Counted from the first letter of the stretch, positions 1-27,659 are shown. The stretch is DNA of 64,000 nt from an uncultured Anaerolineales bacterium (GCA_964438295.1 CAYTKR010000006.1:5469-69468), one strand, 5' to 3'. Numbers and translations are program-made. Notes: generated by a model not told the origin, from the sequence alone.

Positions 1-316
1 CCAGCCAGATATTTTCAATCTCTTCATGTAAAAAGGATGATAAGTTTTCCCAATCCATGCAAAATGATCTGATGCGATCCCAAGCTGCAGACCTCCAATT
101 CTGCTCGGCGTATTGAATGATATTCGCGCTAGAAAATCTTCCATAGCGTAAGGAAAGATCGATAGCATCTTTTTCGCCCATCAGGCGACATTCAAACAAC
201 ACATTGCTTGGTGGGGGCAATGTGCTCGCAAACTGCTCGATTTTTTGTGCTTTAGCTGGAGGAATCAATTCCAAGGGCAAATAGGGAGAAATATCTCTCA
301 ACACAGATGTACGCAT
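1..316 (-). CDS. Hypothetical protein, N-terminal 105 codons only (ORF runs past the left window edge)
   Basis: Hand translation of the minus strand. ATG at 316-314 has GGAG about 8 nt upstream. It reads MRTSVLRDISPYLPLELIPPAKAQKIEQFASTLPPPSNVLFECRLMGEKDAIDLSLRYGRFSS... with no stop before position 1. It is absent from the ORF track only because it has no stop in the window. It lies 30 nt downstream of the 347..1258 gene on the same strand. No family recognised. Confidence 0.5.
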   Translation of the reverse strand, partial: MRTSVLRDISPYLPLELIPPAKAQKIEQFASTLPPPSNVLFECRLMGEKDAIDLSLRYGRFSSANIIQYAEQNWRSAAWDRIRSFCMDWENLSSFLHEEIENIWL

Positions 317-346
317 TAACATCTCCAATAGTCACACCTGAATTTT

Positions 347-1258
347 CTACTCTGTCCAGGCAGAAAATTCAGTATTTGCAGCTTGCTGGATGAAATCTCC
401 GGGTATCGCAGATTGAATTTGATCAATATTAAAGTGAAATCCTCTTATGCGACCCAGGCGGACCAGACCCTGCCAGTTTCCAGGTTTAATGCGCATGATA
501 TCCTTTTGCAATTCAGTGTCGGTTCGAATCAGATCAATAAATGCCTCTGCTTGCGTCGATGTAGGATCTACGACAGGCGCATCTTCCCCGGTTTGGGGCG
601 ATCCTTCTGGTATTAGGTTTGGCGCACTGGCCTTTATGTGGGTCTCGGAGAAGTAAAAATTATTCTGTCTACCTAGGCGAACAACACGCTTCCACCTTCC
701 TGGAGCAATCGCTTCGACCCTTTTTCTTAGCGAGGGATTTTGATTGATTTGCTGAATAAAGGCCTGGGCTTGCGCCATTGTTGGCAGAGGGTCAGAGTTT
801 TGGGGGATTTCAGGAGCATTTGGATCAACTTCAGAGATCAGAGTTGGTGCGATAGCCTTGATTTGAGCAGCGCTAAATGTTAACCCTGCCAGCCTTCCAA
901 CCCGCACAACTCGCTTCCAATGTCCGGGACTGATTTTGCTGAGTTTTCGATTAATTTCCTCATCTGAATTTGCTAGAGTAACGAAATCTTGGGCGTGTTC
1001 GATGCTAGGGGAGACATAAGGCACTTTTTGCTTTGGGGGCGCATTGGGGTCTGCTTCGGGAATTAAATCAGAAGCTACAGATTTTATTTGATCGACTGTA
1101 AAATAGTATTCTGCCAGACGTCCAATTCGGACGACGCGTTGCCATCGCCCTGGCTTGATTCGGCCGATTTGTTTCGCAGTATTTTCATCACTCTCCGCAA
1201 ACTCAACGAAAGCATTCGCTTGTTCAACTGTGGGTTGAGGTCTAATTTCAGGGTCCAT
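347..1258 (-). CDS. Protein of four tandem ~75-aa Nif11-like modules joined by Pro-rich DPNAP linkers
   Basis: 303-aa ORF. Four internal repeats share the pattern A-x-AF(V/I)...(D/N)..L.K.I..I.PG.W.RVVR.GR...F.F...QIK...P.LI.E.DP. The helical N-part plus the W..VV..GR..GF.F block resembles the Nif11 domain. There is no signal peptide, no GG cleavage motif and no Cys-rich core. Confidence 0.7.
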   Translation of the reverse strand: MDPEIRPQPTVEQANAFVEFAESDENTAKQIGRIKPGRWQRVVRIGRLAEYYFTVDQIKSVASDLIPEADPNAPPKQKVPYVSPSIEHAQDFVTLANSDEEINRKLSKISPGHWKRVVRVGRLAGLTFSAAQIKAIAPTLISEVDPNAPEIPQNSDPLPTMAQAQAFIQQINQNPSLRKRVEAIAPGRWKRVVRLGRQNNFYFSETHIKASAPNLIPEGSPQTGEDAPVVDPTSTQAEAFIDLIRTDTELQKDIMRIKPGNWQGLVRLGRIRGFHFNIDQIQSAIPGDFIQQAANTEFSAWTE

Positions 1259-1306
1259 ATTTACTCCTATTTAAAATATTAGGTACATATTTCCACTTTT
1301 CACCAA

Positions 1307-4300
1307 TTACCCCCAATTACCGGGGTCCAAAACTTCTGCTACCCAACCAAACGCATCTCCCATGAATTCCTCTATTGCACTTGCGACATATCCAGCGGCA
1401 ACTAAGGCATCGTTGACTACATCATCCGCAAAGCCCCCGACATCTTTCAAGAAATAGCCAACTTCATCAACCGCAAATCCAGCATATTGCAGGGCATCCG
1501 CAAGGGCCTCTGCAGTCGTCGCACCGATATGTTGCAGGGCACCGCCAATTTCGTCGATATCCCAGCGATTGGCGTATTCCAGTGCATCTGCAATCACGTT
1601 GTAGGAAGCATCGTATACATCCTCGATACCATCGGCAATCTCATTTATCGTGTAGTTGCTGTAATCCAATGCTTCTGCAATTCCGGCTTCTGTTTTATCT
1701 TTTGCGATCTTTAATCCCTCGATGGTTTCTGAAGCCGTATAGCCAGCATATTCCATCGCCTCCCCTATCTCGGCACCTGTAGCATCAAAAGCAACATCAA
1801 GGCCTTCGGCAATTTCGCCTACAGCCTCCCACACTGCAGGACCAGCATTCTCCATGGCATCGGCAACTTCATCAATCGAGGCATTGAATACTTCACTTAA
1901 TGCGCTGGCCATTTCTTCCGCTGTGTAATCTGCCCAGTCCAGGGCCTCAGTTACTTGATCAATTGTAGCGTCAAATGCTATTTGGATGCCCTCTACGGCT
2001 TCTTCTGCCAAATACCCCGCTTGCTCAAGCGCTTCGCCCACAGTTGCCTTAGATGCATCAAAAGCATCTTTTAACCCTTCTGATACTTCTCCGATTGCAT
2101 CCCAGACAGCTGGGCCTGCGTTCTCCATGGCGTCGGCGACTTCATCAATCGAAGCGTTGAAGACCTCCTTGAGCCCATCAGCTAATTCTTCAGCAGTGTA
2201 ATCGGCCCAATCAAGTGCTTCGGTAACTTCATCGATCGTGGCGTCGAATGCACTTTTTACGCCTGCGACCGCTTCTTCGGCGGTGTAACCGGCAAATTCT
2301 AGTGCTTCACCTACCGAAGTCGATGAAGCGTTGAAGGCTTCTTCAAGGCCAGCAGCGATATCCTCAACGGCTTCCCAGGTAGCTGTTGTTGCATTGTGCA
2401 TTGCGCTGGCAACTTCATCAATCGAGGCATCGAAAGCTTCCTTTAAGCCCTCAGCTAATTCACCGGCACTGTAGGCTGCAAAATCTAATGCCTCGGTTAC
2501 TTCGTCGATGCCATGTCCAAATGTATCTTTGATTGCGTTCACAGCTTCTTCTGCAGCAAAACCTGCCGCGCCGAGAGCGTTGCCAACAGCCCAATCCACC
2601 GAACCAAAAGCAGTTTTTAGTCCATCTGCAACCTCTGTAGCTGCATATCCCGCGCCTTTCATGGCAATTGCTATGCCATCTGTAGTAACATCGAAGGCGG
2701 CATCTAGACCTTTTGCCACTTCATCAACAGCATACCCGGCACCTTTCAATGCAATCCCAACGCCCTCTTCAGTGTAATTCCAGCCCTCTACCAGCAGTTC
2801 GGCAGCCTCTTCAGCTCCGGTATCAAAGGCGTCTTTCATCGTTGTAGCAACATCCCCAGTGAATTCGAAGGCGCCTGCGGCCAGCTTCTCGGCCCAAATC
2901 CCAGCGGAGGAGAATAGCACACCAAAGATATCCGAAGCGGAATCTTTGATCTCGTTCAGGATGATATTGTGCAAATTTTCGAAATTATCCGGCTCGACAG
3001 TCAAATGCAAGGTGGGGAAATCCAACCCCACACCCCAAAATTCAAATCCCCCTAAAACGGCGAACGAGAAAATCGGATCCACGCCAGCGGAGATCGTTGT
3101 ATCCGCATTGAAACTGATATCGACTAGGCTGATCTTGTCGGCCACGGGAATTCCTGCAAGATAAATTGGCCCAACGTCGACATTCAAGTTGAAATCGATC
3201 GATCCTCCAGCGGTGAACTGACGATCGGCAAAGCCGCATTCCAACGCCAGAGTCAGGATATCGCCAATACTATCGGTCAAAGAGAAGAGGAACCCACCTG
3301 CATCCGCCTCGATCAGTAATTCGCGCTGCAAACCGAATAGCCTCACAGCGGCCGAAACATAAAGTTCGGGTTGGACCAGTGCCCCAAGCTGCAAGTGCAG
3401 GATGGGGAATTCATCCGTCCCGGAGCCAGTAATCGAAAAGAAACTGCCGATTTCGACTGCATCCATGGCAGCATCGATAATAAATGTATCTGTGGTGATC
3501 GCCAGGGAAACTTGTGCACCCCATCCCCAGGCCTCCAATCTACCCTCGAAGAAGGTGCCCTGTTTCTGGAAGCTGAGCTCTCCTATCTCGACTGGCACAG
3601 TGGGCACGATGTTCAGGAAAACGCCGTCCTCATCGATGCCGGTCAATTTGACGTCGATCACCTTATCGAAGGTATTGGTGATTTCATCTGGCAGTGCCTG
3701 ATAAGCGATCAGGGTTGGCGGCGTCATAGCAGTCATGATCTCGAGCAAGGTAATTTCATCAGTTTGTCCGATTAGGGCGAACTGACCCTCCTTGTTGGCA
3801 TATACGGTGATGCTTCCCGCGATAGTACCGATCTCTAGATTGCCGCTAAACCCAAGATCCTCGATCAAGGAGGTGTATGAAAGCCCAATTTGCGCAGCGA
3901 GCTGGTTGATGGTGATGCCGGGTATACCGAAAGGCTCTTCCCAGGCCAGGGTGTCAGCGCCAGTCTTGTTGAAAGTGTAGGCTCCACTTATAGCGTCAGG
4001 ATCGCCAGAAATACTGCCAGTGAAGAGTAATTCCTCCTCGCCTCCCCAATTCATATTTACGCGCATGTCATGACCGATCCCCAGGGATACATCTGCGCCC
4101 AGGATGGACAGTTCCACAGCTGGGTTCTCGAAGAGCAGCTCGAAACCAATCGCGTCCTCCAGGGGAATCAATGGCCAACTGAGAAAGGCAGTGCCCTCGA
4201 GCAGATACTGTAATCCAGCCGTTGCCTGCGATATCGAGGTATGGATATTGAGCTTGTCGATTCCGAAGGTGCTGCCGATGAAATCGATCAACGCGTCCCC

Positions 4301-5551
4301 ACTGTTCGCTACCAAGAAATTTCCAAAGAAATTTACTCCTGTATTTATTCCAGCTGGAAAATCGATATCATCTAATACATCGGCGTTGCTAAATACCACC
4401 GCAGGCTGCTGGAACTTGATCGCGCTCACCAGCGGAACTTCAACGGGGAAGATGCTGTCTACCCCCCAGGTTTCCTCAGTGCCCGTTGGCGCGAAGAATT
4501 TTGCCACCGCGGTGTAGGACTGATCATTTTTAAGGAAAAACTCGATCCTCGTATCGGTGATTTCCTGCCCAAAGAGCTCAACAGTTCCTACCAGGCGCAA
4601 GCCAACCCCCCCAGATACATTTTGAGAGGGCAATTCGAATTCTCCTTGCCCCAGGATTTGAAGCAAGGCACCCTTGATTGTGATCAAGGCCAGATCTTCC
4701 AAGCCATACATAGTATCGAAAAAGCTGAAATCTCCCAGCAGTCCTGCGGTCAATACGAGATCGCCACTGGGCGATCCCACCGCGCTATTGATCTCATTGA
4801 CCAGCGTTATTCCAAAGCTCTTTAGTGGTTCGGGGACAGTAGATAGGTCGATGGATAGCAGCCCGGGCTCTGAGACAGGTAAATCCCCATCTACGACCCA
4901 CTGGCCGCCGACCATCGTTCCATGGAGTGACTCATCAACAAAGTTTGCTGCCGTGGTTCCACTCCCATCGATCAATTGCCAGTTCGAGATCAGAGAGGGC
5001 TCGCTGCCAAGCATCCATTGGCCTTTATCGCCTTTGATGGCATCCTCAGTTCGGGCAATACTCCAGACTCTCACATCGAGAATGCTGCCATCGAAGAAAA
5101 TCCCGCGATTGTTGGTTCCAATGGATACAGGGGAAGGCTCAGGGTTCGAGAAAGGTGCCGCGACATGGGCAGTATATTTAGTATTATTAAGAATTGCTGT
5201 GAGCGTACCACTGTCGAAGCTCAGGCCAACAAAATGCCATTCCCCCACAGTCAGCTCTCCGTTCCCTACCGTATCGACTTGTTTGCCAGCCAAGGCGCGG
5301 GTCATCACTTGCAGATTGCCGCCTTGGGAGATGCCCAGTTCGAATACATCGGGAGTGCCATCTCCGGTGCGCGCGAAAAAGATATTGCTGACCCCATGCC
5401 GGCTGGCTGCTGCGCTCAAGCTGCTTGGCTTTAGCCAGGCAGAAATTGTGAAGGCGCTGCTGCCTTCCGCCAGTGTACCGCTAACATTTGTAACACCCAG
5501 AATGATGCTATCGCTTTGTCCGTCTAATACCAGTATTTTTGTTGAGCTCAT
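1307..5551 (-). CDS. Giant (1414 aa) LamG/concanavalin-A-like lectin domain protein with unassigned ~700-aa central region and C-terminal acidic tandem repeats
   Basis: ORF-track frame 1307..5623. Start moved to ATG 5551 (MSSTKILVLDG), which has GGGAG 7 nt upstream. The N-terminal ~220 aa match the Laminin_G_3 pattern (FTISAWLKP...WHFVGLSFDSGTLTAILNN...FFDGSILDVRVWSIARTEDAI). No signal peptide or TM helix is visible. Confidence 0.85.
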   Translation of the reverse strand: MSSTKILVLDGQSDSIILGVTNVSGTLAEGSSAFTISAWLKPSSLSAAASRHGVSNIFFARTGDGTPDVFELGISQGGNLQVMTRALAGKQVDTVGNGELTVGEWHFVGLSFDSGTLTAILNNTKYTAHVAAPFSNPEPSPVSIGTNNRGIFFDGSILDVRVWSIARTEDAIKGDKGQWMLGSEPSLISNWQLIDGSGTTAANFVDESLHGTMVGGQWVVDGDLPVSEPGLLSIDLSTVPEPLKSFGITLVNEINSAVGSPSGDLVLTAGLLGDFSFFDTMYGLEDLALITIKGALLQILGQGEFELPSQNVSGGVGLRLVGTVELFGQEITDTRIEFFLKNDQSYTAVAKFFAPTGTEETWGVDSIFPVEVPLVSAIKFQQPAVVFSNADVLDDIDFPAGINTGVNFFGNFLVANSGDALIDFIGSTFGIDKLNIHTSISQATAGLQYLLEGTAFLSWPLIPLEDAIGFELLFENPAVELSILGADVSLGIGHDMRVNMNWGGEEELLFTGSISGDPDAISGAYTFNKTGADTLAWEEPFGIPGITINQLAAQIGLSYTSLIEDLGFSGNLEIGTIAGSITVYANKEGQFALIGQTDEITLLEIMTAMTPPTLIAYQALPDEITNTFDKVIDVKLTGIDEDGVFLNIVPTVPVEIGELSFQKQGTFFEGRLEAWGWGAQVSLAITTDTFIIDAAMDAVEIGSFFSITGSGTDEFPILHLQLGALVQPELYVSAAVRLFGLQRELLIEADAGGFLFSLTDSIGDILTLALECGFADRQFTAGGSIDFNLNVDVGPIYLAGIPVADKISLVDISFNADTTISAGVDPIFSFAVLGGFEFWGVGLDFPTLHLTVEPDNFENLHNIILNEIKDSASDIFGVLFSSAGIWAEKLAAGAFEFTGDVATTMKDAFDTGAEEAAELLVEGWNYTEEGVGIALKGAGYAVDEVAKGLDAAFDVTTDGIAIAMKGAGYAATEVADGLKTAFGSVDWAVGNALGAAGFAAEEAVNAIKDTFGHGIDEVTEALDFAAYSAGELAEGLKEAFDASIDEVASAMHNATTATWEAVEDIAAGLEEAFNASSTSVGEALEFAGYTAEEAVAGVKSAFDATIDEVTEALDWADYTAEELADGLKEVFNASIDEVADAMENAGPAVWDAIGEVSEGLKDAFDASKATVGEALEQAGYLAEEAVEGIQIAFDATIDQVTEALDWADYTAEEMASALSEVFNASIDEVADAMENAGPAVWEAVGEIAEGLDVAFDATGAEIGEAMEYAGYTASETIEGLKIAKDKTEAGIAEALDYSNYTINEIADGIEDVYDASYNVIADALEYANRWDIDEIGGALQHIGATTAEALADALQYAGFAVDEVGYFLKDVGGFADDVVNDALVAAGYVASAIEEFMGDAFGWVAEVLDPGNWG
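1310..2863 (-). repeat. In-frame tandem repeat array: about 18 units of 29-33 aa, consensus x-(V/I)-x-EAL-(D/E)-x-AGYTAEEAV-x-GLK-x-AFDAS
   Basis: The last 518 aa of the giant protein show a GY/DY/VW position recurring every 29-32 residues. A 3-unit (~92 aa, ~276 nt) higher-order repeat occurs three times, roughly 1687..2509 (IDEVTEALDFAAYSAGE..., IDEVTEALDWADYTAEE..., IDQVTEALDWADYTAEE...). The DNA copies have diverged, e.g. ccatggcatcggcaacttcatcaatcgagg near 1852 vs ccatggcgtcggcgacttcatcaatcgaag near 2126. Confidence 0.8.
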
Positions 5552-5809
5552 CGCTTTTCTCCCAATTTGGAATTCGATACCAATATTATTTGCATTATAC
5601 ATAAATAAGACCAAATTTGTCAATATTACTAGGGAATTATCAATTTTTTGGCATAAATCCTACGAATTCCGTATTTTGGGTATGGGGGATATCCAACAAT
5701 ACACCCCAATTGGGATGAATAAGTGGCTCAACCCAAAAATGGGTTCTCTCAGGGTGTTACCCTGGAGCTTAGGGGATTTCTCATCAATAGTTAATCAAGA
5801 TTAGATATA

Positions 5810-6724
5810 GTGAGCGCATCTAAGAGCCTAGCAAATATGATCGATATACTCCTTGTAAACCCGGTATTTCTCAGTCAGAACGAAGCTGAACGCGAGTTGA
5901 TGAACCCCTATTTTCCTTTGGGTTTGCTCTACCTGGCGGCTTTTATCCGCGAGCGCGGCTTTAGTGTGGAGATCTTTGACGGCACTTTCCTTGAAGGCTT
6001 GAGCGATTTCGAAACAACGCTAGAGCAATTATCGCCCCGGATCGTTGGCATCACAGCAGTGAAACCCAATCGCGGGATTGCACTGGGTGTGGCAGAAAAA
6101 GCCCATGAATATGGGGCGCGCGTCGTTCTCGGCGGGCCTGACCCGACCTCCTCGCCGGAAACCTACCTGCTCTCATCTTATGTAGACATCGTCGTCCATC
6201 ATGAGGGCGAACTAACCTTGCTGGAACTCTTGCATTACATACAAGCGGATGAAGATTACAGCCGACTAGACGGTATCGCTTTTAGAGATGAAAACAGCGA
6301 TATTCAAATCAATCCTCGACGTGAATACATCCTCAACCTGGACGAACTGCCCCTACCGGCGCGCGATCTGATCGACATGGATCAATACCTGCAAACCTGG
6401 CGCGAGCATAATGGATATGCCTCACTGACTATATCCGTGGCACGAGGCTGCCCATTCGGCTGTGAATGGTGTCAGGATGCAGTCCACGGGCCTGATTTGC
6501 GCCAGCGATCGACTGAGAGCGTAGTTGCCGAAGTCAAGTCCCTAATGGAGACTTATGACATCGACCGTCTGCGAGTGATCGACGATGTCGACGGCCTTGA
6601 TAGAGATTGGATCGTGTCCTGGGCTAAAGCGGCTGAGGCGGAAGATGCCGTGCTGCCCTTCGAAGCGCTCAACGACCTCGAAAGGCAAGATATCCCCATG
6701 CTGGATGTGCGCGACAGTCTCTGA
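5810..6724 (+). CDS. B12-binding-domain radical SAM protein, apparently C-terminally truncated
   Basis: The N-terminal cobalamin-binding-like domain (ILLVNPVF...YFPLGLLYLAAFIRERGFSVEIFDG...GITAV) is followed by CxxxCxxC (SVARGCPFGCEWC). The ORF stops about 85 aa after the cluster motif, whereas family members normally continue for more than 200 aa. GTG start. Confidence 0.65.
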   Translation: MSASKSLANMIDILLVNPVFLSQNEAERELMNPYFPLGLLYLAAFIRERGFSVEIFDGTFLEGLSDFETTLEQLSPRIVGITAVKPNRGIALGVAEKAHEYGARVVLGGPDPTSSPETYLLSSYVDIVVHHEGELTLLELLHYIQADEDYSRLDGIAFRDENSDIQINPRREYILNLDELPLPARDLIDMDQYLQTWREHNGYASLTISVARGCPFGCEWCQDAVHGPDLRQRSTESVVAEVKSLMETYDIDRLRVIDDVDGLDRDWIVSWAKAAEAEDAVLPFEALNDLERQDIPMLDVRDSL

Positions 6725-6755
6725 AGGAAGCGCAATGTTTATTTTCCCACCGTGA

Positions 6756-7544
6756 GTGGGAACCTGCATGCACCGCCGAAAGATTAAATCGCCAAGATAT
6801 CTGAATCTGATGCCAACCCCAAACTTTTTCACCCAAGGCTCCCCCTACCTAAAGCACCCTCTGTTGACTCCTGAGCGTAAGGTCAAAGAGATCGATTTTG
6901 TCCTGCAACACGCCAAAGTAGAGCCGAGCGCAGCAATCCTAGATGTGGGTTGCGGGTTTGGGCGGCACAGCATTGAACTGGCCCGACGCGGCTATAAAGT
7001 AGTCGGGATCGATTCATCTGCAACCATGATCGCGGCAGCCGAGGAGCGTTCCGCAGGGATTTGGGGCCAACCCACATTCACCCAAGCGCGCGCTGAAGAG
7101 TTCACTTCTCAGGATCAATTTGATGCCGCCATCTGCCTGTTTTCAACCCTTGGGCAAATTGACTCTCAGGGCGAAAACAGCAACCTGGTAAAAAGAGTCG
7201 CGGAAGTATTGCGGCCAAAGGGGCACTTTATTGTCGAAGTGCCAAACCACCTGTGGGTAGCCGAAAACCTGAAAGCAGAAGAACGATTTGGAGATAATGA
7301 GAACTACACACACATCACCCGCCAGTATGATCAGAAAAACAAGATCGTCAGCGAGAAATTTGAGCTCGTCTCTCCGCAAGGAATACAAGAGTATTTTCTG
7401 CGCTATCGCCTTTACAGTCAGAAAGAACTAGGTGAACTGTTTAGCTTGGCCAATCTAAATATTAGATTCATCTTTGGGGATTATGATGGCAACCCGTATA
7501 CGTACTACAGCCCGGTCATTATCCTGGTTACACAAAGTTCCTAA
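6756..7544 (+). CDS. Class I SAM-dependent methyltransferase
   Basis: Motif I ILDVGCGFGRHSIELARRGYKVVGIDSS, with the post-I acidic residue and the typical fold length. Start uncertain (GTG 6756, ATG 6768 or ATG 6810). Confidence 0.8.
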   Translation: MGTCMHRRKIKSPRYLNLMPTPNFFTQGSPYLKHPLLTPERKVKEIDFVLQHAKVEPSAAILDVGCGFGRHSIELARRGYKVVGIDSSATMIAAAEERSAGIWGQPTFTQARAEEFTSQDQFDAAICLFSTLGQIDSQGENSNLVKRVAEVLRPKGHFIVEVPNHLWVAENLKAEERFGDNENYTHITRQYDQKNKIVSEKFELVSPQGIQEYFLRYRLYSQKELGELFSLANLNIRFIFGDYDGNPYTYYSPVIILVTQSS

Positions 7545-13355: not shown

Positions 13356-16300
13356 ATGCTGATCCCACAAGTCATCCGCACAAAGATAATCCCCCCTACC
13401 CCACCGGCACGCATCCTTCAGCGACCACGGCTTTCTAAAGCATTGGATGAAATTGCCCATTATCGTTTGACATTGCTCCAGGCGAACGCGGGATATGGCA
13501 AGAGTACCGCCCTCACGTCCCTGGCCCAAGAGATGCCGGTTATTTGGTATCAGATCACCGAGGAAGATAATGATATTTTCGTCTTCCTGCTCCATCTACT
13601 CCATGCTACCCAAGTTGCCATTCCGCATATCGACACTCTCCCCATCCATTTGCTAGAGGGATGGGATAATATCCAAGATCCCTTACCAATGGTGGAAATT
13701 GTCCACCAGTATTTGAATGCACTGAGTGGCAGTTTACACCAGCTTACAATTCTAGTGCTCGATGACATCCACTTAGTGGCCAACGTCCCTGAGATTGCAC
13801 ATGCACTTGATCGACTCATTGGACTGGCACCGTCAGAGCTAAAAATCTTGCTTTCTTCGCGCTTTCCGATAAAGCTGCCCAATTTGACCCGCTGGCAATC
13901 GCGCGGCGATGTCCTCTCCATCGACCACAACACATTGAAATTTACAAGAGACGAGATTTCACTCCTTTTCAAGAAGCAATACGATCATGAGCTCGCGGAC
14001 GAAGAAATCGATAGCCTCACTCAACTCACCGAAGGCTGGGCAATCGCACTGCAACTTGCCTGGCAGAGTTTGCGCAGCGGCGCAATTGCTTCTATTGAGG
14101 ACGTGATAAGTAAAGGTGCGAAATCCCAAAGTCACCTATTTGAGGTACTTACCTTTGAGGTCATGCAACAGCAGCCTGAGGATATTCAGGTTTTTCTGCA
14201 AATATCTGCCACATTGAGGATCATGACCCCAGAAGCCTGCGATGCCATTCGAGGGAGTACTAATAGCGAAACGATCCTCGATCATCTTCGCCAACATGAG
14301 CTATTCGTTGTCGATCTTGGCGATGAGGGACTCCGCTACCATCATATTTTTCACCAGTACTTGTTAGGACTGTCGGCTGAAGATCAATTGCGTGACTGGC
14401 ACCAACTGGCAGCAAAGTACTACCAGAATCATTCTGATATCGATTCCGCGATCTACCATCTATTTCGCGCCGAAAATCACCATCAGGCAGCCACATTACT
14501 CAGCAATTATGGCCCGCGCTTATTGGTAATGGGACGCCTCGATACGTTAGCTGCCCACCTTGACAATCTATCACCTGAAACGCTCCACCAACATCCCATC
14601 CTACTTACTTATCTTGGTGACCTGGCCCGTTTACGAAGTCGGTTTCAAGAAGCGTTGGGCTGGTACAAGCAAGCAGAAACCCTTTGCAAAGAACGCGGTC
14701 TCAGTGACGGTCTAAGTCGCTCGCTGCGTGGCCAGGCGCGCGTATATCTCGACACCGTCAGTCCTCGCCGAGCTGAAGAGCTATTGCAGCAAGCCTTACG
14801 AGTCAGCGACGGCACTGCGGACCGTGAGGCCCAGTCCAGGCTCTATCAACTGTTGGCAGAAAATAAGTTGGACACCGGCAAAGTGGAAGAGGCGGAGGAG
14901 CTACGCCACAAAGCGGAGGCACTTGTCCGAGAGGGGCCAGCAGATTCTCAGTTACTCATCCGGGTGCTATTGCGAACCGGACGCCTGGCAGAAGCCAGGG
15001 AACAGTTAGAGGCGTTGGTCGAAGTCGAGCGCAAAGAGCCAGTGCATATTGCACGATCGCATCGAGAGACCTTGCTGTTGCTTTCATTCATTTATGCGAT
15101 GCAGGGCAATCACCAAGATGCATTCCAAACAGCATCAGAGGGAATTGAGCGCGGCAAAGCCTTGAACTCACCTTTTATCACGGCTGTGGGACATATGCGC
15201 CTTGGTCATGCCCAAATGTTGAGTTCTGATCCCGACCTCTTCCAAAAATCAAGAGAGCAATTTGAAAAGGCCATTGAAATCAGCCGCACCTTGGCCATCC
15301 CGCGGTTGCGCGTGGAGGCTTGCTGGGGGCTTTGTAAGACATACGGATATCAAGGAGATCTCGAAGAGGCGACCAAGATCGCCTTTGAAGGAATCGAGCT
15401 TGCCAGCCTATCTGGAGATGAATGGATTGCCTCACTTATTCGCATGGCAATGGGGGCAAGTCTTACCCTGGCGGGAAAATACGACGAGGCTTCCGAGTGG
15501 TTGCGGCAGGCAGCCCGAGGATTCCGCGAATGCAGTGACCCCTTTGGAACGAACGCAGCCAGATTGTGGTTAAGTCTCGTCAGGTTCCGTCAAGGGGATT
15601 TGGAGCGCTTATCTCAAACCCTTCGTGAAGTTTTGGCCGCATGCCGGCAGCAACACTACGACTATTTATTTACTCGTCCTTCTTTATTTGGCCTGACGGA
15701 TGAGCGCCTGGCAATTCCCTTGTTGATTTTGGCTCGAGAGCATGGCTGGGAGGGCACCTATCCGGAAAGACTGCTCAACGAACTGGGTCTTGAGAAAATT
15801 CGAAGTCATCCGGGGTACCAACTAAAAGTCCAAACTCTGGGCGCGTTCAAAGTCTGGAGAGGCAGCAAGGAAATCCCCCATAAGGGTTGGCGTCGTGAAA
15901 AAACGCGCCAGCTATTCCAAATCTTGCTCACATACCGTCAGACACCTCAAAATCGCGAACAATTATGCGAGCATCTCTGGCCTGAGATCGATCCAGACAC
16001 ATCCCAGCGAAATTTCAAAGTCGCTCTAAGCACCTTGTATAACGTACTCGAACCCAACAGAGAACCAGGCAGCGATTCGGCCTTTATTGTTCGTCACGGG
16101 ACCACTTACTCCATAAGACCAGAAGCTGACCTCTTGATCGATGCTGCCCAGTTCGCCACGATCGTCCATCAATCTGAAAAAATCATGGCTCATGATCCTC
16201 TTCAGGCCATCGATTTGATGGAGGAGGCTCTGGCGCTTTATAGTGGTGAGTACCTCCCAGACGCACGCTACGAAACCTGGGCCGCTGCAGACCGAGAGCA

Positions 16301-16583
16301 ATTGTCCGTTTTATATCTGCGCACGGCTGATCAATATTGTGAATTGAGTCTACAGAACAACAACATTGAAGAAGCGATCCATTTGTGCCAGCAAATTTTG
16401 AGCTATGACAACTGTTGGGAACGCGCCTACCGGCACTTGATGACTGCCTATGATCAACTTGGGGACCATGGTCAGGTTGCCCGAACGTACCAGCGCTGCC
16501 TGGATACACTAAAAGAAGAATTAGATGTCCTCCCAGCTCCCGAAACCGAACAACTCTACCAACGCCTGATCCTAACGGAATAA
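13356..16583 (+). CDS. Large STAND-type transcriptional regulator: MalT-like N-terminal ATPase, TPR-like middle, C-terminal SARP (OmpR-type wHTH + BTAD) domain
   Basis: The N-terminus follows the MalT pattern (TKIIPPTPPARILQRPRL..., LLQANAGYGKST, VLDDIHLV, TEGWAIALQLAW). The C-terminal ~250 aa follow the SARP pattern (LKVQTLGAFKVWRGSKEI...WRREKTRQLFQILL..., then ALALYSGEYLPD...WERAYRHLMTAYDQLGDHGQVARTYQRCLDTLKEELDVLPAPET). Confidence 0.8.
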   Translation: MLIPQVIRTKIIPPTPPARILQRPRLSKALDEIAHYRLTLLQANAGYGKSTALTSLAQEMPVIWYQITEEDNDIFVFLLHLLHATQVAIPHIDTLPIHLLEGWDNIQDPLPMVEIVHQYLNALSGSLHQLTILVLDDIHLVANVPEIAHALDRLIGLAPSELKILLSSRFPIKLPNLTRWQSRGDVLSIDHNTLKFTRDEISLLFKKQYDHELADEEIDSLTQLTEGWAIALQLAWQSLRSGAIASIEDVISKGAKSQSHLFEVLTFEVMQQQPEDIQVFLQISATLRIMTPEACDAIRGSTNSETILDHLRQHELFVVDLGDEGLRYHHIFHQYLLGLSAEDQLRDWHQLAAKYYQNHSDIDSAIYHLFRAENHHQAATLLSNYGPRLLVMGRLDTLAAHLDNLSPETLHQHPILLTYLGDLARLRSRFQEALGWYKQAETLCKERGLSDGLSRSLRGQARVYLDTVSPRRAEELLQQALRVSDGTADREAQSRLYQLLAENKLDTGKVEEAEELRHKAEALVREGPADSQLLIRVLLRTGRLAEAREQLEALVEVERKEPVHIARSHRETLLLLSFIYAMQGNHQDAFQTASEGIERGKALNSPFITAVGHMRLGHAQMLSSDPDLFQKSREQFEKAIEISRTLAIPRLRVEACWGLCKTYGYQGDLEEATKIAFEGIELASLSGDEWIASLIRMAMGASLTLAGKYDEASEWLRQAARGFRECSDPFGTNAARLWLSLVRFRQGDLERLSQTLREVLAACRQQHYDYLFTRPSLFGLTDERLAIPLLILAREHGWEGTYPERLLNELGLEKIRSHPGYQLKVQTLGAFKVWRGSKEIPHKGWRREKTRQLFQILLTYRQTPQNREQLCEHLWPEIDPDTSQRNFKVALSTLYNVLEPNREPGSDSAFIVRHGTTYSIRPEADLLIDAAQFATIVHQSEKIMAHDPLQAIDLMEEALALYSGEYLPDARYETWAAADREQLSVLYLRTADQYCELSLQNNNIEEAIHLCQQILSYDNCWERAYRHLMTAYDQLGDHGQVARTYQRCLDTLKEELDVLPAPETEQLYQRLILTE

Positions 16584-16901: not shown

Positions 16902-17663
16902 ATGCGTCTTAAGGACAAAGTTTGTTTGATCACCGGGGGAGCTGCCGGGATCGGGAAAGCCACCGCTCAACGCTTTGTTGAAGAAGGTGCCAAGGTCATC
17001 ATCTGTGACCTGGCTGAAGAGTTGGGAGAGAAAACCGCATCCGAATTAGGGGTTGATTTCTACAAAGTTAATGTGGCCGACCGCCATGATGTTCAGAGTT
17101 GGGTGGACGATGTAATAAATAAATATGGGCGTGTGGACGTTTTGATCAACAACGCCGGCGTTCTGCGAGATGGCCTATTCGTCAAAGTCAAGGATGGCGA
17201 ACTGGCTGGCCAAATGTCTGAAGAGAATTTTGATCTGGTCATCGATGTAAATTTGAAGGGTGTATTCAATTGCGCTCAGGCAGTAGCACCTTTCATGATC
17301 AAACAAGGCGAGGGTGGCGCAATCATCAATACGACCTCTATCGTTGGCCTGGATGGCAACTTTGGGCAGACCAACTACGTGGCTTCCAAAGCTGGAGTGA
17401 TCGGCATGACCAAAGTTTGGGCGCGCGAGTTGGGACGTCACAAGATCCGCGTCAATGCTATCGCCCCAGGCTTCACGCTGACTGAGATGGTCAAGCAAAT
17501 GCCTGAGAAGATATTGGAAGGCATGATCGCCAAAACTCCGATGAAACGCATGGGCGAGCCCGTAGACATCGCCAACGCCTTTTTATTCCTTGCATCCGAC
17601 GAAGCCACCTACATCTCCGGAGTCACCTTAAGAGTCGATGGCGGAATTGTTGTTGGAACCTGA
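16902..17663 (+). CDS. Short-chain dehydrogenase/reductase, 3-oxoacyl-(ACP/CoA) reductase type (FabG/PhaB-like)
   Basis: TGGAAGIGKA cofactor motif, NNAG, and catalytic S...YVASK. AAGGAG RBS. Confidence 0.85.
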   Translation: MRLKDKVCLITGGAAGIGKATAQRFVEEGAKVIICDLAEELGEKTASELGVDFYKVNVADRHDVQSWVDDVINKYGRVDVLINNAGVLRDGLFVKVKDGELAGQMSEENFDLVIDVNLKGVFNCAQAVAPFMIKQGEGGAIINTTSIVGLDGNFGQTNYVASKAGVIGMTKVWARELGRHKIRVNAIAPGFTLTEMVKQMPEKILEGMIAKTPMKRMGEPVDIANAFLFLASDEATYISGVTLRVDGGIVVGT

Positions 17664-17671
17664 ACGCATTG

Positions 17672-17703
17672 AGACCTTTAGGGTTTGAAAACCCTAAAGG
17701 TCT
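17672..17703. other. Perfect 14-bp hairpin between the SDR and KAS-III-like genes
   Basis: agacctttagggtt-tgaa-aaccctaaaggtct. No T-run follows it. Confidence 0.6.
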
Positions 17704-17711
17704 ACTCTATT

Positions 17712-18716
17712 ATGACTAGATTCGCACAAATATTATCAACAGGAAGCTATGTCCCTGAGCGGGTAGTGACCAATGCTGAGATCGATGAGGTTCTAGGAAT
17801 CTCTACGAACCAGTGGCTGATCGACAATGTTGGCATCCGAGAACGACGTTGGATGGCAGACGATCAAACCACCTCTGACCTGATCGTCGCAGCCAGCCAG
17901 AAAGCTCTGGCGAGGACGGGCGTTCGTCCTGAAGAGATCGACCTGATCATCGTTTCGACGGATACCCCAGATTATCTATCCCCCAGTACATCCATTGTGG
18001 TACAGCACAAATTGGGTGCGACCAAGGCGGGATGCTATGATGTCAATAGCGCTTGCGCCGGCTGGGTCACCGCGCTCGACCAGGGTGCGCGTTACATCGC
18101 CACAGAACCAGATTTCAAGTATGTTTTGGTTGCGGGGGGGTATGGTATGAGCCGCTATTTAAACTTGGCTGATAAAACCACCGCTAATCTTTTCGCCGAT
18201 GGCGCTGGAGCCGCGCTACTAGGTGTTGGAGAACAGCCAGGATTCTTGGCTAGTAAAATGCTGGCCAAGGGCGAATTTCACGACGCGCTGGGAATCTATT
18301 GCGGCGGCACCTATCTCCCTGCAACTACGAAAAACCTGGAGCAATACGGCGGCAAGCCGGTGGTACAGTTTGTTAAAAAATTCCCCAAGACTTTCAACAC
18401 CGAGTACTGGCCCAAACTGATCCAGGGTGCTCTAGATAAGGTCAATTTGACCTTTGACGATGTCGACTACTACTTGCTTACCCAGCTAAATCTCCGCACC
18501 ATCGAAGCTATGATGGAACTGCTGGGCCAGCCCATTGAGAAGACCCATTGGGTGATGGACAAATGGGGCTACACTGGCTCTCCCTGTGTGATCATGGCTC
18601 TAGATGATGCCATCGACCAAGGCAAGGGTCCCAAAACTGGCGACAAGGTGCTTTTCTGTGCCAGTGGTGGTGGTATCAGCATGGCGGCCTCGCTTTGGCA
18701 GTGGTCTGCCCAATGA
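17712..18716 (+). CDS. KAS-III (FabH)-like thiolase-fold protein with a degenerate catalytic triad
   Basis: Colinear with FabH throughout (GSYVPERVVTNAEID, GIRERR, active-site NSACAG with Cys codon 18054-18056, FADGAGAA, ASGGG). The HQAN motif reads TQLN (Thr codon 18480-18482). The GNTSAAS motif reads GYTGSPC (Tyr codon 18570-18572). Start set at ATG 17712 because the ORF-track TTG 17685 lies inside the hairpin. Confidence 0.75.
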   Translation: MTRFAQILSTGSYVPERVVTNAEIDEVLGISTNQWLIDNVGIRERRWMADDQTTSDLIVAASQKALARTGVRPEEIDLIIVSTDTPDYLSPSTSIVVQHKLGATKAGCYDVNSACAGWVTALDQGARYIATEPDFKYVLVAGGYGMSRYLNLADKTTANLFADGAGAALLGVGEQPGFLASKMLAKGEFHDALGIYCGGTYLPATTKNLEQYGGKPVVQFVKKFPKTFNTEYWPKLIQGALDKVNLTFDDVDYYLLTQLNLRTIEAMMELLGQPIEKTHWVMDKWGYTGSPCVIMALDDAIDQGKGPKTGDKVLFCASGGGISMAASLWQWSAQ

Positions 18717-18744
18717 CCGGTACCCAGTAAACGGTAGGCAGTAA

Positions 18745-19548
18745 ATGCCTTCGATACAAACACAGAACCTTATCATCCAATATCAACAATCTGGAACAGG
18801 TAAAATTCCGATTGTATTCATTCATGGAAACTACGCCTCTTCCCGTTGGTGGCTGCCTCAGTTTGAGCGGATCCCCCCGAATGTGCGTGCCTTCGCCCCC
18901 GAACTCAGGGGCTGTGGCAGTAGCCATGGACGCACTCAACTCTTACAGAAGAAAAACGGCCAGCTTTCTATCGAGGATCTTTCGACTGACCTCGCTGAAT
19001 TTATTTCAGCGCTGAACCTTGAAAACCCAATTCTTGTCGGACACTCGCTCGGGGGTGTTGTTGCCACGGAGTACGCGCTCAGATTCACGGATAGTGTGCG
19101 CGGATTGCTCCTGGAAGACACCGGGCCACCCAATGGCATCCTATCAGGGCCCCTCGCGCAGTCTCTTTTGCTTCCTCTGGAATTCGGCAGCCGCACATTG
19201 ATGCGCAATGCCCTTAGGATGGCTGGGATTCCACGCAAAGGTGACCTGGCCCGGGCTCTCGTCCAGGATGCGGTCGCGGCCACCCCAGGGCAATATTTAG
19301 CCTTCACTAGCGCAGTATCACGCTGGAACGTAGAATCCGATCTTCCTGCACTCGATCTGCCAGTCGGATTGGTTTGGGGCGCTAAGGATCGCATTATGCC
19401 CCCTAGGATTGGAAATCAATATCTAAACACATTGCCACGGGCAGAAATGTTTCTCATTCCTGATGCTGGGCACTCCCCACATCTCGAACAACCCAACATT
19501 TTTGCTAGAGTATTGGAACAATTCATCGCCTCACTGCGCCTTTCGTGA
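18745..19548 (+). CDS. Alpha/beta-fold hydrolase
   Basis: HG oxyanion motif (VFIHGNYAS), nucleophile elbow GHSLGG, C-terminal DAGHSPHLEQP. Confidence 0.8.
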   Translation: MPSIQTQNLIIQYQQSGTGKIPIVFIHGNYASSRWWLPQFERIPPNVRAFAPELRGCGSSHGRTQLLQKKNGQLSIEDLSTDLAEFISALNLENPILVGHSLGGVVATEYALRFTDSVRGLLLEDTGPPNGILSGPLAQSLLLPLEFGSRTLMRNALRMAGIPRKGDLARALVQDAVAATPGQYLAFTSAVSRWNVESDLPALDLPVGLVWGAKDRIMPPRIGNQYLNTLPRAEMFLIPDAGHSPHLEQPNIFARVLEQFIASLRLS

Positions 19549-19600
19549 CACCCACCGGCATATTCATCTAGTTTTTCACGCGAAGATTTGGAGGTGTGAA

Positions 19601-20077
19601 ATGTCAGAATGGACCAAGCAAGCTGAAGAGATGTTCAAAGCCTGGAGCGAGGCTCAAAAGGCTCTCATGGACAAATGGGCTGAGAGCGTCAAATCATTTA
19701 GTGACGCGCCCGACATGGAGATGTGGAAAAACACCCTGGAAACCTGGGAGGAAACCGCCAAGAACACTTTCAGCTCTCAGGCCGAATGGACCCAAAGCTG
19801 GGTTGAGAATTTCAAATCCATGGAGGGCTTGCCCGAGCAGGCCGTCGAATCGGTCGGTAAATTTCAGGAGATGGGCGAACGTTGGGGTGCTACCCAACAA
19901 GAAATGTGGGACAAATGGTTCGAGATGCTCAAAGGGCTCGAATTTCCACCGGCAACCGAAAAATGGTCTGAGGCTTTACAAAATCCTTTGAAAACCTGGC
20001 AAGATGCTACCCAGAAGGCGATGGATGCGCAGGCTGATTGGATGAAAATCTGGACGGGTTCCGACAAGGAAGAATAA
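19601..20077 (+). CDS. Trp/Glu/Lys-rich helical protein, possible phasin or PhaE-N-terminal-like PHA granule protein
   Basis: 158 aa starting MSEWTKQAEEMFKAWSEAQKALMDKWAESV..., with 15 or more Trp in W-x(2-3)-W type amphipathic repeats. GGAGG lies 6 nt upstream of ATG 19601; the ORF-track start 19463 overlaps the previous gene. The functional guess rests on composition and position next to the phaC genes. Confidence 0.45.
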   Translation: MSEWTKQAEEMFKAWSEAQKALMDKWAESVKSFSDAPDMEMWKNTLETWEETAKNTFSSQAEWTQSWVENFKSMEGLPEQAVESVGKFQEMGERWGATQQEMWDKWFEMLKGLEFPPATEKWSEALQNPLKTWQDATQKAMDAQADWMKIWTGSDKEE

Positions 20078-20096
20078 TTACATTTTCCACGAAGAG

Positions 20097-20233: not shown

Positions 20234-20260
20234 AACCCCTCATAAGTACTTGTAATGGAT

Positions 20261-22207: not shown

Positions 22208-22242
22208 CGAGAAGGCGGATCCACTTCCACTTGGAGGTCGAG

Positions 22243-27658: not shown

Positions 27659-27659
27659 A

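Follow-up and report, generated by a model that had tools for sequence, protein, structure and literature searches.

ABBA prenyltransferases fold into a barrel of ten antiparallel strands contributed by five alpha-beta-beta-alpha repeats, in which basic residues and tyrosines bind the diphosphate and an acidic residue acts as base or as Mg2+ ligand. The closest described systems to the locus reported here are members of this superfamily that modify tryptophan residues of ribosomally made precursors. MppC of Moorena producens is an ABBA prenyltransferase without a sequence link to PagF; it requires the Nif11 leader of its partner MppE and geranylates Trp82, and among 258 MppC-like proteins 87 adjoin PF07862 genes and 76 adjoin LanM (PMC12715784). 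NctPC, as cited in PMC13290415 (Hubrich et al. 2024), is a fusion of a prenyltransferase with a class II terpene cyclase that acts on Trp. Enzymes of the MppC/NctPC type are found in the company of Nif11/NHLP-type precursors, LanM and peptidase-ABC exporters in Cyanobacteriota, Myxococcota and other groups.

We describe here a three-gene operon of an uncultured Anaerolineales bacterium that shares part of this organization, with an acidic giant protein (gene 1), a protein of four Nif11-type modules (gene 2) and a predicted prenyltransferase (gene 3). All three genes lie on the minus strand and are separated by gaps of 48 nt (1259-1306) and 30 nt (317-346), coordinates which on recomputation agree with those in an initial annotation of the window (the whole 64,000-nt stretch of DNA analyzed; Table 1). 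Extension of the contig to the left, as that annotation had proposed, recovered the whole of gene 3 (434 aa), and because it is complete and a convergent Sulf_transp gene comes next on the longer contig, the operon comprises exactly three genes. The divergent intergenic region measures 258 nt (5552-5809), as previously stated, and contains the sole perfect sigma-70 consensus within positions 1-6000, which, as a consensus match only, marks a putative promoter. Comparison with one relative shows purifying selection on each of the three genes, with omega values of 0.22 and 0.03 for the two parts of gene 1 retained there, 0.27 for gene 2 and 0.34, the highest of the operon, for gene 3. We read the operon, with a probability of roughly 0.55, as a derivative of Nif11-leader-dependent RiPP prenylation systems that acts on protein-sized partners.

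Table 1. Features of the three-gene operon and its divergent neighbors (positions counted from the first letter of the window).
Feature	Position	Strand	Remarks
Gene 3, first 105 of 434 codons	1..316	-	Remainder beyond the window (full: L001:13781-15085)
Gene 2, 303 aa, four tandem Nif11-type (leader structured-nucleus type) modules	347..1258	-	Pro-rich linkers
Gene 2 C-terminal tail IPGDFIQQAANTEFSAWTE	350..403	-	Trp300 at +20 from module-motif end
Nif11 module 4, aa 230-285	404..571	-	Nearest to the module of gene 3 (34% identity)
Nif11 module 3, aa 156-212	623..793	-	
Nif11 module 2, aa 81-137	848..1018	-	
Nif11 module 1, aa 6-62	1073..1243	-	
Gene 1, acidic giant, 1414 aa	1307..5551	-	ATG at 5551; pI 4.05, net charge -176, one Cys
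Gene 1 C-terminal tail FMGDAFGWVAEVLDPGNWG	1310..1366	-	Holds the FxW Trp and the terminal DPGNW motif
~17 helical 'AGY' units, 29 or 33 aa	1367..2797	-	GLKxAFDAsxdeVxeALexAGYtaEEvax; 91-aa super-period
Stretch missing from in-frame deletion allele, gene 1 codons 196-1227	1871..4966	-	
Gene 1 'module B', aa 736-900	2852..3346	-	Just ahead of the repeats; kept in P0002
Gene 1 region without family match, aa ~197-735	3347..4963	-	aa 356-702 homologous to P0002 198-551
LamG (Laminin_G_3), gene 1 aa 27-172	5036..5473	-	E 1e-18
Promoter-like site TTGACA-18 nt-TATAAT	5594..5623	-	12/12 consensus matches; ~43 nt upstream of gene 1 ATG
B12-binding/radical-SAM ORF	5810..6724	+	Pfam/NCBIfam matches
Class I SAM methyltransferase	6756..7544	+	Pfam/NCBIfam matches

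Two genes are transcribed divergently from the operon. The first, a B12-binding/radical-SAM ORF, is truncated, its profile matches ending ~90 aa past the CxxxCxxC motif, and had been described as a remnant; since a length of 295 aa is kept in relatives with an omega of 0.125, it is not decaying. Its pattern of divergence differs from that of the operon. The second is the methyltransferase already recognized in the initial annotation, whose similarity to the methyltransferases that occur as fusions with, or in the vicinity of, other prenyltransferases of this family is only generic.

Gene 3, which had been assigned to no nameable system, is now predicted to encode an ABBA prenyltransferase; the family is RiPP-associated, and its members adjoin Nif11 precursors as MppC does. 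Its sequence has no match in Pfam, NCBIfam or the PDB. The AF2 model computed from 4 sequences is nevertheless a barrel of five beta-beta-alpha-alpha repeats (pLDDT 59.5), and the model from 61 sequences reaches a pLDDT of 80.5 and a pTM of 0.76, with values of ~90 in the enzyme domain. Foldseek searches of the PDB returned for each model only ABBA prenyltransferases among the best 50 matches, each at a probability of 1.00 and including NphB/Orf2 (3e-7), EpzP, AmbP1, PagF, LimF, CloQ, DMATS, PirF and DciF, and these matches, together with the modeled repeats, place the product in the ABBA barrel fold at a moderate similarity to solved prenyltransferases (target-normalized TM 0.47-0.57, sequence identity 8-13%). 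The cyanobactin enzymes PagF, LimF, PirF and PatF share this barrel and are among the best structural matches; in contrast to the system proposed here they act independently of a leader on small, mostly macrocyclic peptides, and have no detectable sequence similarity to gene 3. The predicted enzyme domain spans aa 1 to ~340; past a linker comes a Nif11-type module (aa ~361-413), and the protein ends in a tail that has Trp429 at +20.

Glu, Asp, Arg, Lys, His and Tyr residues conserved in the family map to the predicted barrel strands. Gene 3 keeps R44 and D53 as well as E42, E106, D108, R179, R185, R309, H313, K315, K327 and Y329, the latter set being invariant or nearly so and lying on predicted strands. 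The gene 3 lineage departs at five positions that are at least 90% conserved in the family (Y198F, D231N, E243D, C265L and K269E), where the other giant-associated enzymes retain the family consensus, and its omega is the highest of the operon; the chemistry of the enzyme may have changed, or its activity may be lost. Loss of these residues, D231 and K269 among them, would suit a noncatalytic arrangement in which the barrel is a dead enzyme here and serves, like the Nif11 modules, as a docking part of a cytoplasmic scaffold built with the giant, as would the multivalence of both sides (4+1 modules, ~17 units) and the three modules of gene 2 that come without a candidate acceptor. We consider such an arrangement improbable, given that twelve further barrel residues, charged or aromatic and conserved, are retained in gene 3, which is under purifying selection, that the giant-associated enzymes P0058 and P0043 keep the consensus at nearly all positions compared (in P0043, Pro replaces Arg44), and that a Trp kept at +20 between lineages (see below) is unexplained by docking alone; a version based on charge complementarity fails on the near-neutral pI of gene 2. 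The scaffold is also the nearest surviving form of the adaptor/scaffold idea in the initial annotation.

At E<=1e-3 a profile search with the gene 3 family returned 3755 cluster representatives, and at the stricter E<=1e-30 it returned 1162; most are 340-390 aa long, and among ten members looked up both named ones are called 'hypothetical protein'. MppC and NctPC, which are lanthipeptide Trp prenyltransferases, probably belong to the same family, as judged from context and fusion architecture only. Both elements of the MppC context are found around its members: in Argonema (L010) the gene immediately upstream of one encodes a Nif11 precursor that ends in ...VGGLRAVIWGGGDRL, and another locus (L006) has the order LanT, mersacidin-type LanA, prenyltransferase, LanM; the window has the Nif11 part only. 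C39-peptidase ABC exporters adjoin family members in Corallococcus (L008) and in a member of the Syntrophobacteraceae (L009). Some members are fused to a squalene-hopene-cyclase-like domain, others to a methyltransferase or a 2OG oxygenase, and two proteins of ~710 aa (P0039 and P0064) have a SQHop_cyclase match C-terminal to the enzyme domain, an architecture like that of NctPC, whereas gene 3 itself has no cyclase and carries a Nif11 module as its C-terminal fusion. The W336/F340 numbering of MppC was found in none of the best 150 family members.

The four-module, Nif11-like build of gene 2 that had been recognized earlier is borne out by matches to PF07862 (E 9e-19) and TIGR03798 (E 1.6e-19) and by a 75-aa period, with 27-45% mutual identity between modules. 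Its description as fourfold basic holds for a patch on helix 3 only, as the protein has a pI of 6.47 and a net charge of -1 and each module is about neutral. Cores of TIGR03798 precursors are usually rich in Cys, Ser or Thr. Gene 2 shares the Nif11-type N-terminal domain of these precursors, which have a single leader of ~60-80 aa, a GG/GA motif and a short core; it differs from them in its four modules and in containing neither Cys nor a GG cleavage motif. They also adjoin a C39-peptidase ABC exporter together with LanM, a cyclodehydratase or a radical SAM enzyme, a set that the operon and the examined neighbors do not offer. The modules of gene 2 align in register with MppE and with the Argonema precursor. 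Modules 1-3 are without the tail Trp; Trp300 in the C-terminal tail is a candidate prenyl acceptor by its position, since in each of the four tail-bearing modules, which come from two lineages (the tails of genes 2 and 3 and both modules of the Nif11 protein of locus L019, described below), a Trp follows the module motif at exactly +20.

The likeness to MppC/MppE lies in features rather than in a direct sequence comparison: a soluble ABBA enzyme (~350 aa in MppC) stands beside a Nif11 partner, and a Trp lies at a fixed distance past the Nif11 domain (+30 for the acceptor of MppE, +20 in the tails here). The operon differs in lacking LanM, a Cys-containing core, a GG cleavage site and a C39 exporter; four tandem modules in 303 aa make up its Nif11 partner; gene 3 bears a C-terminal Nif11 module and tail of its own; and the 1414-aa giant is a conserved third partner.

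A giant followed by a gene 3 homolog is found in the window and in four further loci, which together span 34-57% G+C with enzymes 24-45% identical, and these giant-associated enzymes are mutual best matches within the family. The order giant to prenyltransferase is seen in the window, L002, L015 and L016, and the order giant, two-module Nif11 protein, prenyltransferase in L019, L020 and L021, so that L019 repeats the full operon order; the locus of P0043, looked up as a prediction from the clustering of the enzymes, returned the full three-gene order. No Nif11 gene separates giant and enzyme in three of the five loci, those on contigs that end near the genes (L002, L015 and L016), and in L016 the stop of the giant overlaps the start of the enzyme. 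This adjacency, the full order in L019 and the Nif11 module type common to gene 2 and the C terminus of gene 3 support one part of the earlier interpretation, that the three genes form a functional unit, with homologs of the giant and the Nif11 protein co-occurring in the neighborhood search; the other part, a stoichiometric electrostatic partnership, is not supported (see below).

The same neighborhoods bear on whether the giant could instead be an unrelated lectin-type adhesin, surface-bound or secreted, encoded beside a Nif11 and prenyltransferase pair that makes a lipidated product of its own. LamG domains in gene 1 and in P0002, its sole full-length distant homolog among 5.8 billion proteins, fit such a division of labor, as do the N terminus of P0002, C-type-lectin-like by eye, and the acidic, Cys-poor composition that gene 1 shares with many exported repeat proteins. 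Two independent functions nonetheless appear unlikely in view of the adjacency in five loci of such differing G+C and enzyme identity, the stop-start overlap in L016 and the lectin domains themselves, which are not kept. In addition, Streptomyces giants that share only the LamG domain have no prenyltransferase neighbor, no secretion genes lie nearby, and no hydrophobic N terminus or transmembrane-like segment was found in the three proteins by a crude hydropathy test (maximum Kyte-Doolittle 19-aa mean 1.37), a test which agrees at that level with the absence of signal peptides claimed for genes 1 and 2.

The LamG domain that the initial annotation had placed in gene 1 is real. LamG domains lie further along the protein in P0002, and as the giant of L019 has none, and indeed no Pfam domain, LamG is not the family-defining feature of the giants and is an accessory domain. 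Gene 1 aa ~197-900 have no Pfam or NCBIfam match, in agreement with the ~700 aa without a recognizable motif noted before, and the acidic helical repeats are likewise present, as ~17 units at aa ~919-1395 (about 18 in the earlier count), with a net charge of -97 across the final 534 aa. They are unrelated to Nif11 (hhalign probability 2.9%), and no Nif11 module was found in the giants. Gene 1 aa 768-1382, which take in most of 'module B', align with aa 1318-1916 of the L019 giant (E 1e-16). The FxW Trp of the tail is invariant in 4 aligned AGY-type giants and a C-terminal [DN]P[GS]NW is found in three of five giants, P0002 ending in KVW and the L015 giant in EIY; with an omega of 0.03 across the last 184 aa of gene 1, the tail may either accept the prenyl group or serve in recognition. 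An in-frame deletion allele, seen in the MAG of a related member of the Anaerolineales and in a metagenome from JGI, encodes a product of 381/398 aa consisting of LamG, the last ~6 units and the tail, with about two thirds of the repeats lost, and is accompanied by a gene 2 that still has four modules.

Two described classes of repeat protein were considered for gene 1 and rejected. Giant adhesins and toxins of the RTX/T1SS type carry GGxGxD calcium-binding repeats and are encoded beside an ABC/MFP exporter; gene 1 has no HemolysinCabind match, matches no other described adhesin or toxin family and has no exporter nearby. ZorA of the anti-phage system Zorya combines a MotA/ExbB-type membrane domain with a long tail, to which the helical repeats match weakly (E 3e-6 to 1e-3, which falls far short of the NCBIfam cut-off), and gene 1 has no membrane domain.

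Two further accounts of the repeats can be weighed against these comparisons. Multi-core precursors occur in other RiPP classes, and the giant might be one, its units being prenylated and then cut into small lipopeptides: it is always the first gene, the usual position of a precursor, the characterized relatives of the enzyme act on Trp, and in the L019 giant, which has 81 Trp in its last 650 aa, an 11-aa Trp-bearing unit (WTADAWEATTQ) is repeated ~45 times. This is quite improbable, however, as the repeats differ by lineage, 29-aa AGY units mostly without Trp in one case and 11-aa Trp-rich units in the other; as it leaves the N-terminal 900-1300 aa without a role; and as no protease, C39-ABC exporter or cleavage motif was found in the operon or the neighboring genes examined. 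We know of no precedent for a precursor of 1400-1950 aa. The account in the initial annotation, a stoichiometric, charge-based pairing between ~18 acidic units in gene 1 and the four modules, taken as basic, in gene 2, draws on the strong acidity of gene 1 and on a local basic helix (KPGRWQRVVRIGR) in each module. It is now hardly tenable, since gene 2 and its modules are near neutral, L019 matches ~45 units with 2 modules, and the deletion allele retains ~6 of ~17 units beside an unchanged four-module gene 2; moreover, the repeats of P0002 appear Asn/Thr-rich where those of gene 1 have Asp/Glu (by eye and uncounted, the whole-protein pI being 4.05 in both), and a Nif11 gene between giant and enzyme is absent from three of the five loci, whose contigs end near the genes.

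Returning to the operon as a derivative of a Nif11-dependent prenylation system, we infer from the computed features (predicted fold, family size, neighborhoods, fusions, motif conservation and purifying selection) a catalytic activity, Trp as the acceptor and which Trp it is, a prenyl donor and a role for the giant. Gene 3 would be a soluble ABBA prenyltransferase. In systems of the MppC/NctPC type the enzyme docks the folded Nif11 'structured nucleus' of a precursor leader, and docking sets the register such that a downstream Trp is delivered into the barrel and the prenyl group of an allylic diphosphate is transferred to its indole. Here the docking domain would have been multiplied in gene 2 and fused to the C terminus of the enzyme in gene 3, the likeliest acceptors being the single Trp300 and Trp429, exactly 20 residues past the last module of gene 2 and past the module of gene 3, respectively. 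The giant would be an obligate partner of this prenyltransferase subclade, either as a further acceptor by way of its C-terminal tail (FxW ... [DN]P[GS]NW) or as the structure on which lipidated Nif11 proteins act. In the absence of a protease, exporter or cyclase, the products are expected to remain lipidated proteins rather than released peptides.

Several known modifications resemble parts of this scheme. The borosin enzyme OphMA carries a substrate segment fused at its own C terminus, though borosins undergo backbone N-methylation by an enzyme with a fold unlike that of gene 3; by analogy, the module and Trp tail on the C terminus of gene 3 suggest that the enzyme could modify itself. In bacteria, ComQ/ComX and PalQ exemplify prenylation of a Trp near or at the C terminus of a peptide, a location resembling that of the tail Trp here, and these enzymes are of the trans-isoprenyl-diphosphate-synthase-like type, not ABBA (PMC13290415). 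The substrates of ComQ and PalQ are short pheromone precursors. CaaX prenyltransferases, which are alpha-alpha-barrel zinc enzymes alkylating Cys, likewise lipidate a full-length protein near its C terminus, and would be matched in this respect if the giant or the gene 2 protein is the final product, with the difference that here an ABBA enzyme would alkylate Trp.

We tentatively raise the further possibility, against which the odds still lie, that one lineage of RiPP prenyltransferases has been turned to the lipidation of bacterial proteins at Trp residues near the C termini of the giant, of the tandem leader-domain protein and of the enzyme itself. If this is the case, these bacteria would make lipid-anchored or lipid-decorated proteins, and the operon would represent a bacterial counterpart of protein prenylation, spread over several phyla, in which Trp and an ABBA enzyme take the place of Cys and a CaaX transferase.

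The three-gene, co-directional operon described in the initial annotation is borne out by the coordinates, with all genes head to tail and intergenic gaps of 48 nt (genes 1-2) and 30 nt (genes 2-3). Leftward extension, proposed there to recover the rest of gene 3, yielded the full protein on a longer Logan contig (L001) with an identical gene 1, which places a convergent sulphur-transport gene directly after gene 3, so that the operon consists of exactly three genes. No convincing terminator was seen between them, and the 258-nt region upstream of gene 1, checked for riboswitches and other known RNAs, gave no Rfam match at E<=0.1. Its promoter-like site, a full sigma-70 consensus match with an 18-nt spacer, is unusual for a genome whose closest relative is an uncultured Anaerolineales MAG.

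Features of the operon, its surroundings and related loci (window positions unless a locus or protein is named)
Feature	Location	Strand	Details
Gene 1, giant protein	1307..5551	minus	1414 aa
Gene 2, tandem Nif11 protein	347..1258	minus	303 aa
Gene 3, predicted prenyltransferase	start at 316, cut by window edge	minus	434 aa in full
Promoter-like site	5623-5594	minus	TTGACA-18-TATAAT; 12/12 sigma-70 consensus match, ~43 nt upstream of gene 1 start
LamG (Laminin_G_3) domain	gene 1 aa 27-172	minus	E 1e-18
AGY repeats	gene 1 aa ~919-1395		~17 units of 29 or 33 aa, consensus GLKxAFDAsxdeVxeALexAGYtaEEvax; 91-aa super-period
Segment lost in deletion allele	1871-4966 (gene 1 codons 196-1227)		In-frame loss of 1032 codons; junction at ID/ID microhomology
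Deletion-allele copies of gene 1	L005:2068-3213; L011:2018-3214		
Operon-flanking genes	5552-7544		72-88% identical, L001 vs L005
B12-binding/radical-SAM ORF	5810-6724		Ends ~90 aa past CxxxCxxC motif
BTAD/TPR regulator	13356-16583		
Ordinary metabolic genes	16902-29641; 44839-48204		SDR, KAS III, hydrolases, PhaC-type PHA synthase, two acyl-CoA ligases, thiolase
Four-GAF GGDEF protein			Also encoded in the window
P0002 locus	L002		P0002, then gene 3 homologue 214 nt downstream
P0155 locus	L015		P0155 is closest to the L002 enzyme; directly preceded by a gene encoding the C-terminal part of an AGY-repeat protein
P0058 locus	L016		P0058 is closest to gene 3; C-terminal end of AGY-repeat protein just upstream, giant's stop overlapping enzyme's start
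P0043 loci	L019, L020, L021		1950-aa giant, then 177-aa protein with two Nif11 modules, then enzyme P0043
L019 giant	L019:3354-9206		1950 aa, net charge -141, ends NPSNW
Lanthipeptide locus	L006		Family gene between mersacidin-type LanA and LanM, after LanT-type exporter
Argonema antarcticum Nif11 precursor	L010:9513-9830		C-terminus ...VGGLRAVIWGGGDRL; GG site and Trp-containing 12-aa core; directly upstream of family gene
Argonema antarcticum prenyltransferase	L010:9977-11035		Directly after the precursor
Exporter-associated family genes	L008 (Corallococcus); L009 (Syntrophobacteraceae MAG)		Adjoin C39-peptidase ABC exporters

Searched in full against Pfam and NCBIfam, the gene 3 protein returned nothing but a weak Nif11 match (aa 365-412). 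A profile of gene 3 and three relatives retrieved a family of 3755 cluster representatives at E<=1e-3 (1162 at E<=1e-30), mostly 340-390 aa long, and of the ten members that were looked up two are named, both as hypothetical proteins; a genome scan with the four-sequence family alignment reached four loci only. The AF2 model from four sequences already shows five beta-beta-alpha-alpha repeats, and the model from 61 sequences has a mean pLDDT of 80.5 (~90 at aa 10-280 and 310-335) and a pTM of 0.76. In Foldseek searches of the PDB with both models, the best 50 matches were all ABBA aromatic or peptide prenyltransferases, including NphB/Orf2, EpzP, AmbP1, PagF, LimF, CloQ, bacterial and fungal DMATS, PirF and DciF, each with a probability of 1.00 and with E-values down to 3e-7, the likeness to the solved enzymes being at the level of the fold only (TM ~0.5, identity ~10%). 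Acidic, basic, His and Tyr residues conserved in the family sit on the predicted strands of gene 3. As five family positions at least 90% conserved are replaced in the gene 3 lineage (Y198F, D231N, E243D, C265L and K269E), the predicted activity may be altered or lost there; the related enzymes P0043 and P0058 do not carry these substitutions. Outside the window, family members are fused to squalene-hopene-cyclase-like, methyltransferase, 2OG-Fe(II) oxygenase or FAD-binding domains (P0039, P0064, P0044, P0046, P0077, P0112 and P0161). One further member, P0087 (440 aa, ENA metagenome), has a C-terminal extension of ~63 aa that contains AVKRFLARYKYDFTPGEF and looks Nif11-like by eye; it was detected neither by Pfam nor by our Nif11 module profile.

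Gene 2 consists of four 75-aa modules of 27-45% mutual identity, joined by Pro-rich linkers, matching the Nif11 models PF07862 (E 9e-19) and TIGR03798 (E 1.6e-19) and in register with genuine Nif11 leaders when aligned to MppE and the Argonema precursor; its sequence lacks both Cys and a GG cleavage motif. The initial annotation had taken these for four basic Nif11-like modules, of which the number and type hold but not the charge: given its pI of 6.47 and near-neutral modules, in which only helix 3 is basic, gene 2 does not encode a basic protein.

The description of gene 1 as a LamG fold followed by some 700 aa of no recognised family stands, as aa ~197-900 have no match in Pfam, NCBIfam or PDB sequences. 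The protein is strongly acidic (pI 4.05, net charge -176), has one Cys, and shows neither a hydrophobic N-terminus nor a TM-like segment. Membership in any described family of adhesins, toxins or defence proteins was rejected, since the protein matches only LamG and low-complexity helices and no PDB sequence; the apolipoprotein, phasin and ZorA-tail matches reflect low-complexity helical similarity far below cut-offs. Streptomyces LamG proteins of 2400 aa have only LamG in common with it and no prenyltransferase neighbour, and the AGY repeats, which like Nif11 modules appear as helix-G[FY]-helix, are not cryptic Nif11 modules (hhalign probability 2.9%). Among 5.8 billion proteins, P0002 (1467 aa) is the only distant full-length homologue found, sharing aa 356-702, aa 736-900 and the repeats by local alignment; a global alignment is wrong here because the LamG domains are placed differently in the two proteins, which also marks LamG as accessory. 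Pattern scans of metagenome contigs with gene 1 C-terminal alignments found no relatives, and also missed L011, a JGI contig that encodes both peptide patterns.

A shortened gene 1 of 381 or 398 aa occurs in two separate records, the Anaerolineales MAG and an independent JGI metagenome; an in-frame deletion has spared LamG, ~6 units at the end of the repeat region and the tail, and genes 2 and 3 are intact. The reading frame stays open, and the C-terminal stretch that is kept is almost identical to that of the window. The deletion allele points to the C-terminal part as the portion of gene 1 that matters, and argues against any fixed number ratio between gene 1 repeats and gene 2 modules. The electrostatic pairing of ~18 acidic units with four basic modules put forward in the initial annotation is contradicted by charge, by the deletion allele and by unit numbers.

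The same annotation was right to suspect an unnamed functional unit, and the gene-neighbourhood check that it suggested recovers giant, tandem Nif11 protein and enzyme together at the P0043 locus (L019, L020 and L021). This locus was chosen as a prediction, from the clustering of its enzyme with giant-associated ones, and the three-gene order was found there. Its giant aligns with gene 1 across part of module B and the repeats (E 1e-16), has no LamG and no Pfam domain, and carries ~45 tandem copies of the 11-aa unit WTADAWEATTQ, with 81 of its 95 Trp in the repeats (650 aa). The five loci range widely in G+C content (34, 41, 41.5, 49.5 and 57%).

To our knowledge, the first descriptions of ABBA prenyltransferases that depend on a leader date from 2024-2025 and present them solely as enzymes that tailor short lanthipeptides. 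One of them, MppC of a class II lanthipeptide cluster, geranylates Trp82 of MppE and requires the whole Nif11-type leader, a folded nucleus and a disordered part (Wakeel et al., PMC12715784). MppC-like proteins are absent from the PagF sequence similarity network and lie beside PF07862 genes in 87 of 258 cases and beside LanM in 76 of 258 (PMC12715784), and a 2026 review describes NctPC, a prenyltransferase-terpene cyclase fusion, as geranylgeranylating Trp (PMC13290415). As the gene 3 family reproduces these contexts (lanthipeptide genes, Nif11 precursors and exporters) and the cyclase fusion, it is probably the MppC/NctPC family, as judged by gene context and fusion architecture. MppC itself, sought by its W336/F340 numbering, was not found among the top 150 family members. 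The Argonema locus is a minimal pair of precursor and prenyltransferase genes, with no LanM gene in the 10 kb around it.

Tails follow four Nif11 modules (gene 2 module 4, the gene 3 C-terminal module and both L019 modules), and in all four the only tail Trp lies exactly +20 from the motif G[FY]x[FL]xxx[ED][IL], whereas the modified Trp of MppE lies at +30. In the four aligned AGY-type giants, one Trp, in ...M.D.F.W... and eight residues past the last AGY unit, is invariant, and 3/5 giants have a C-terminal [DN]P[GS]NW. From these patterns we infer that the module-tail and giant-tail Trp are candidate acceptor sites. A classical released RiPP is an unlikely product, since the neighbouring genes examined include no exporter, protease or cyclase.

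Comparison with one related genome indicates purifying selection on all three genes, with omega of 0.22 and 0.03 in the two retained parts of gene 1, 0.27 in gene 2 and 0.34 in gene 3; within gene 1, constraint is strongest over the final 184 aa (0.03). At the DNA level, the operon of the window lineage (L001) is 90-98% identical to that of the Anaerolineales MAG (L005), and its dS of 0.13-0.20 against 0.72 for the radical-SAM ORF suggests that the operon was recently exchanged or underwent a sweep. The B12/radical-SAM ORF and the adjacent class I methyltransferase, which diverge far more than the operon, are treated as unlinked to the system: the ORF is truncated and its matches to RiPP-type radical-SAM profiles fall far below cut-offs, and the methyltransferase has only generic similarity to those fused to or near family members. 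With its length kept at 295 aa in relatives and an omega of 0.125, the truncated radical-SAM protein seems to be maintained.

Overall, these predictions put the operon among the Nif11-leader-dependent ABBA prenyltransferase systems as a new form, distinguished by tandem leader-domain proteins, an enzyme-leader fusion and a conserved giant partner. Together with matching loci from at least four further lineages, it ties this prenyltransferase family to partners of another scale than short lanthipeptides, namely giant proteins (1400-1950 aa) whose helical repeats are specific to each lineage and proteins of 2-4 copies of the folded leader nucleus, the fusion of a leader module to the enzyme itself being a feature of the window's lineage. 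A function-level prediction is thereby supplied for a family of more than 3700 cluster representatives without a Pfam or NCBIfam model. Should the enzyme act on them, this would be the first case known to us of a RiPP enzyme-leader pair lipidating whole proteins, and a docking module, 20 residues and a Trp would make a simple genetic handle for attaching lipids to proteins at Trp; if it is inactive on them, the operon still shows how a leader peptide can turn into a repeated protein-protein docking domain.
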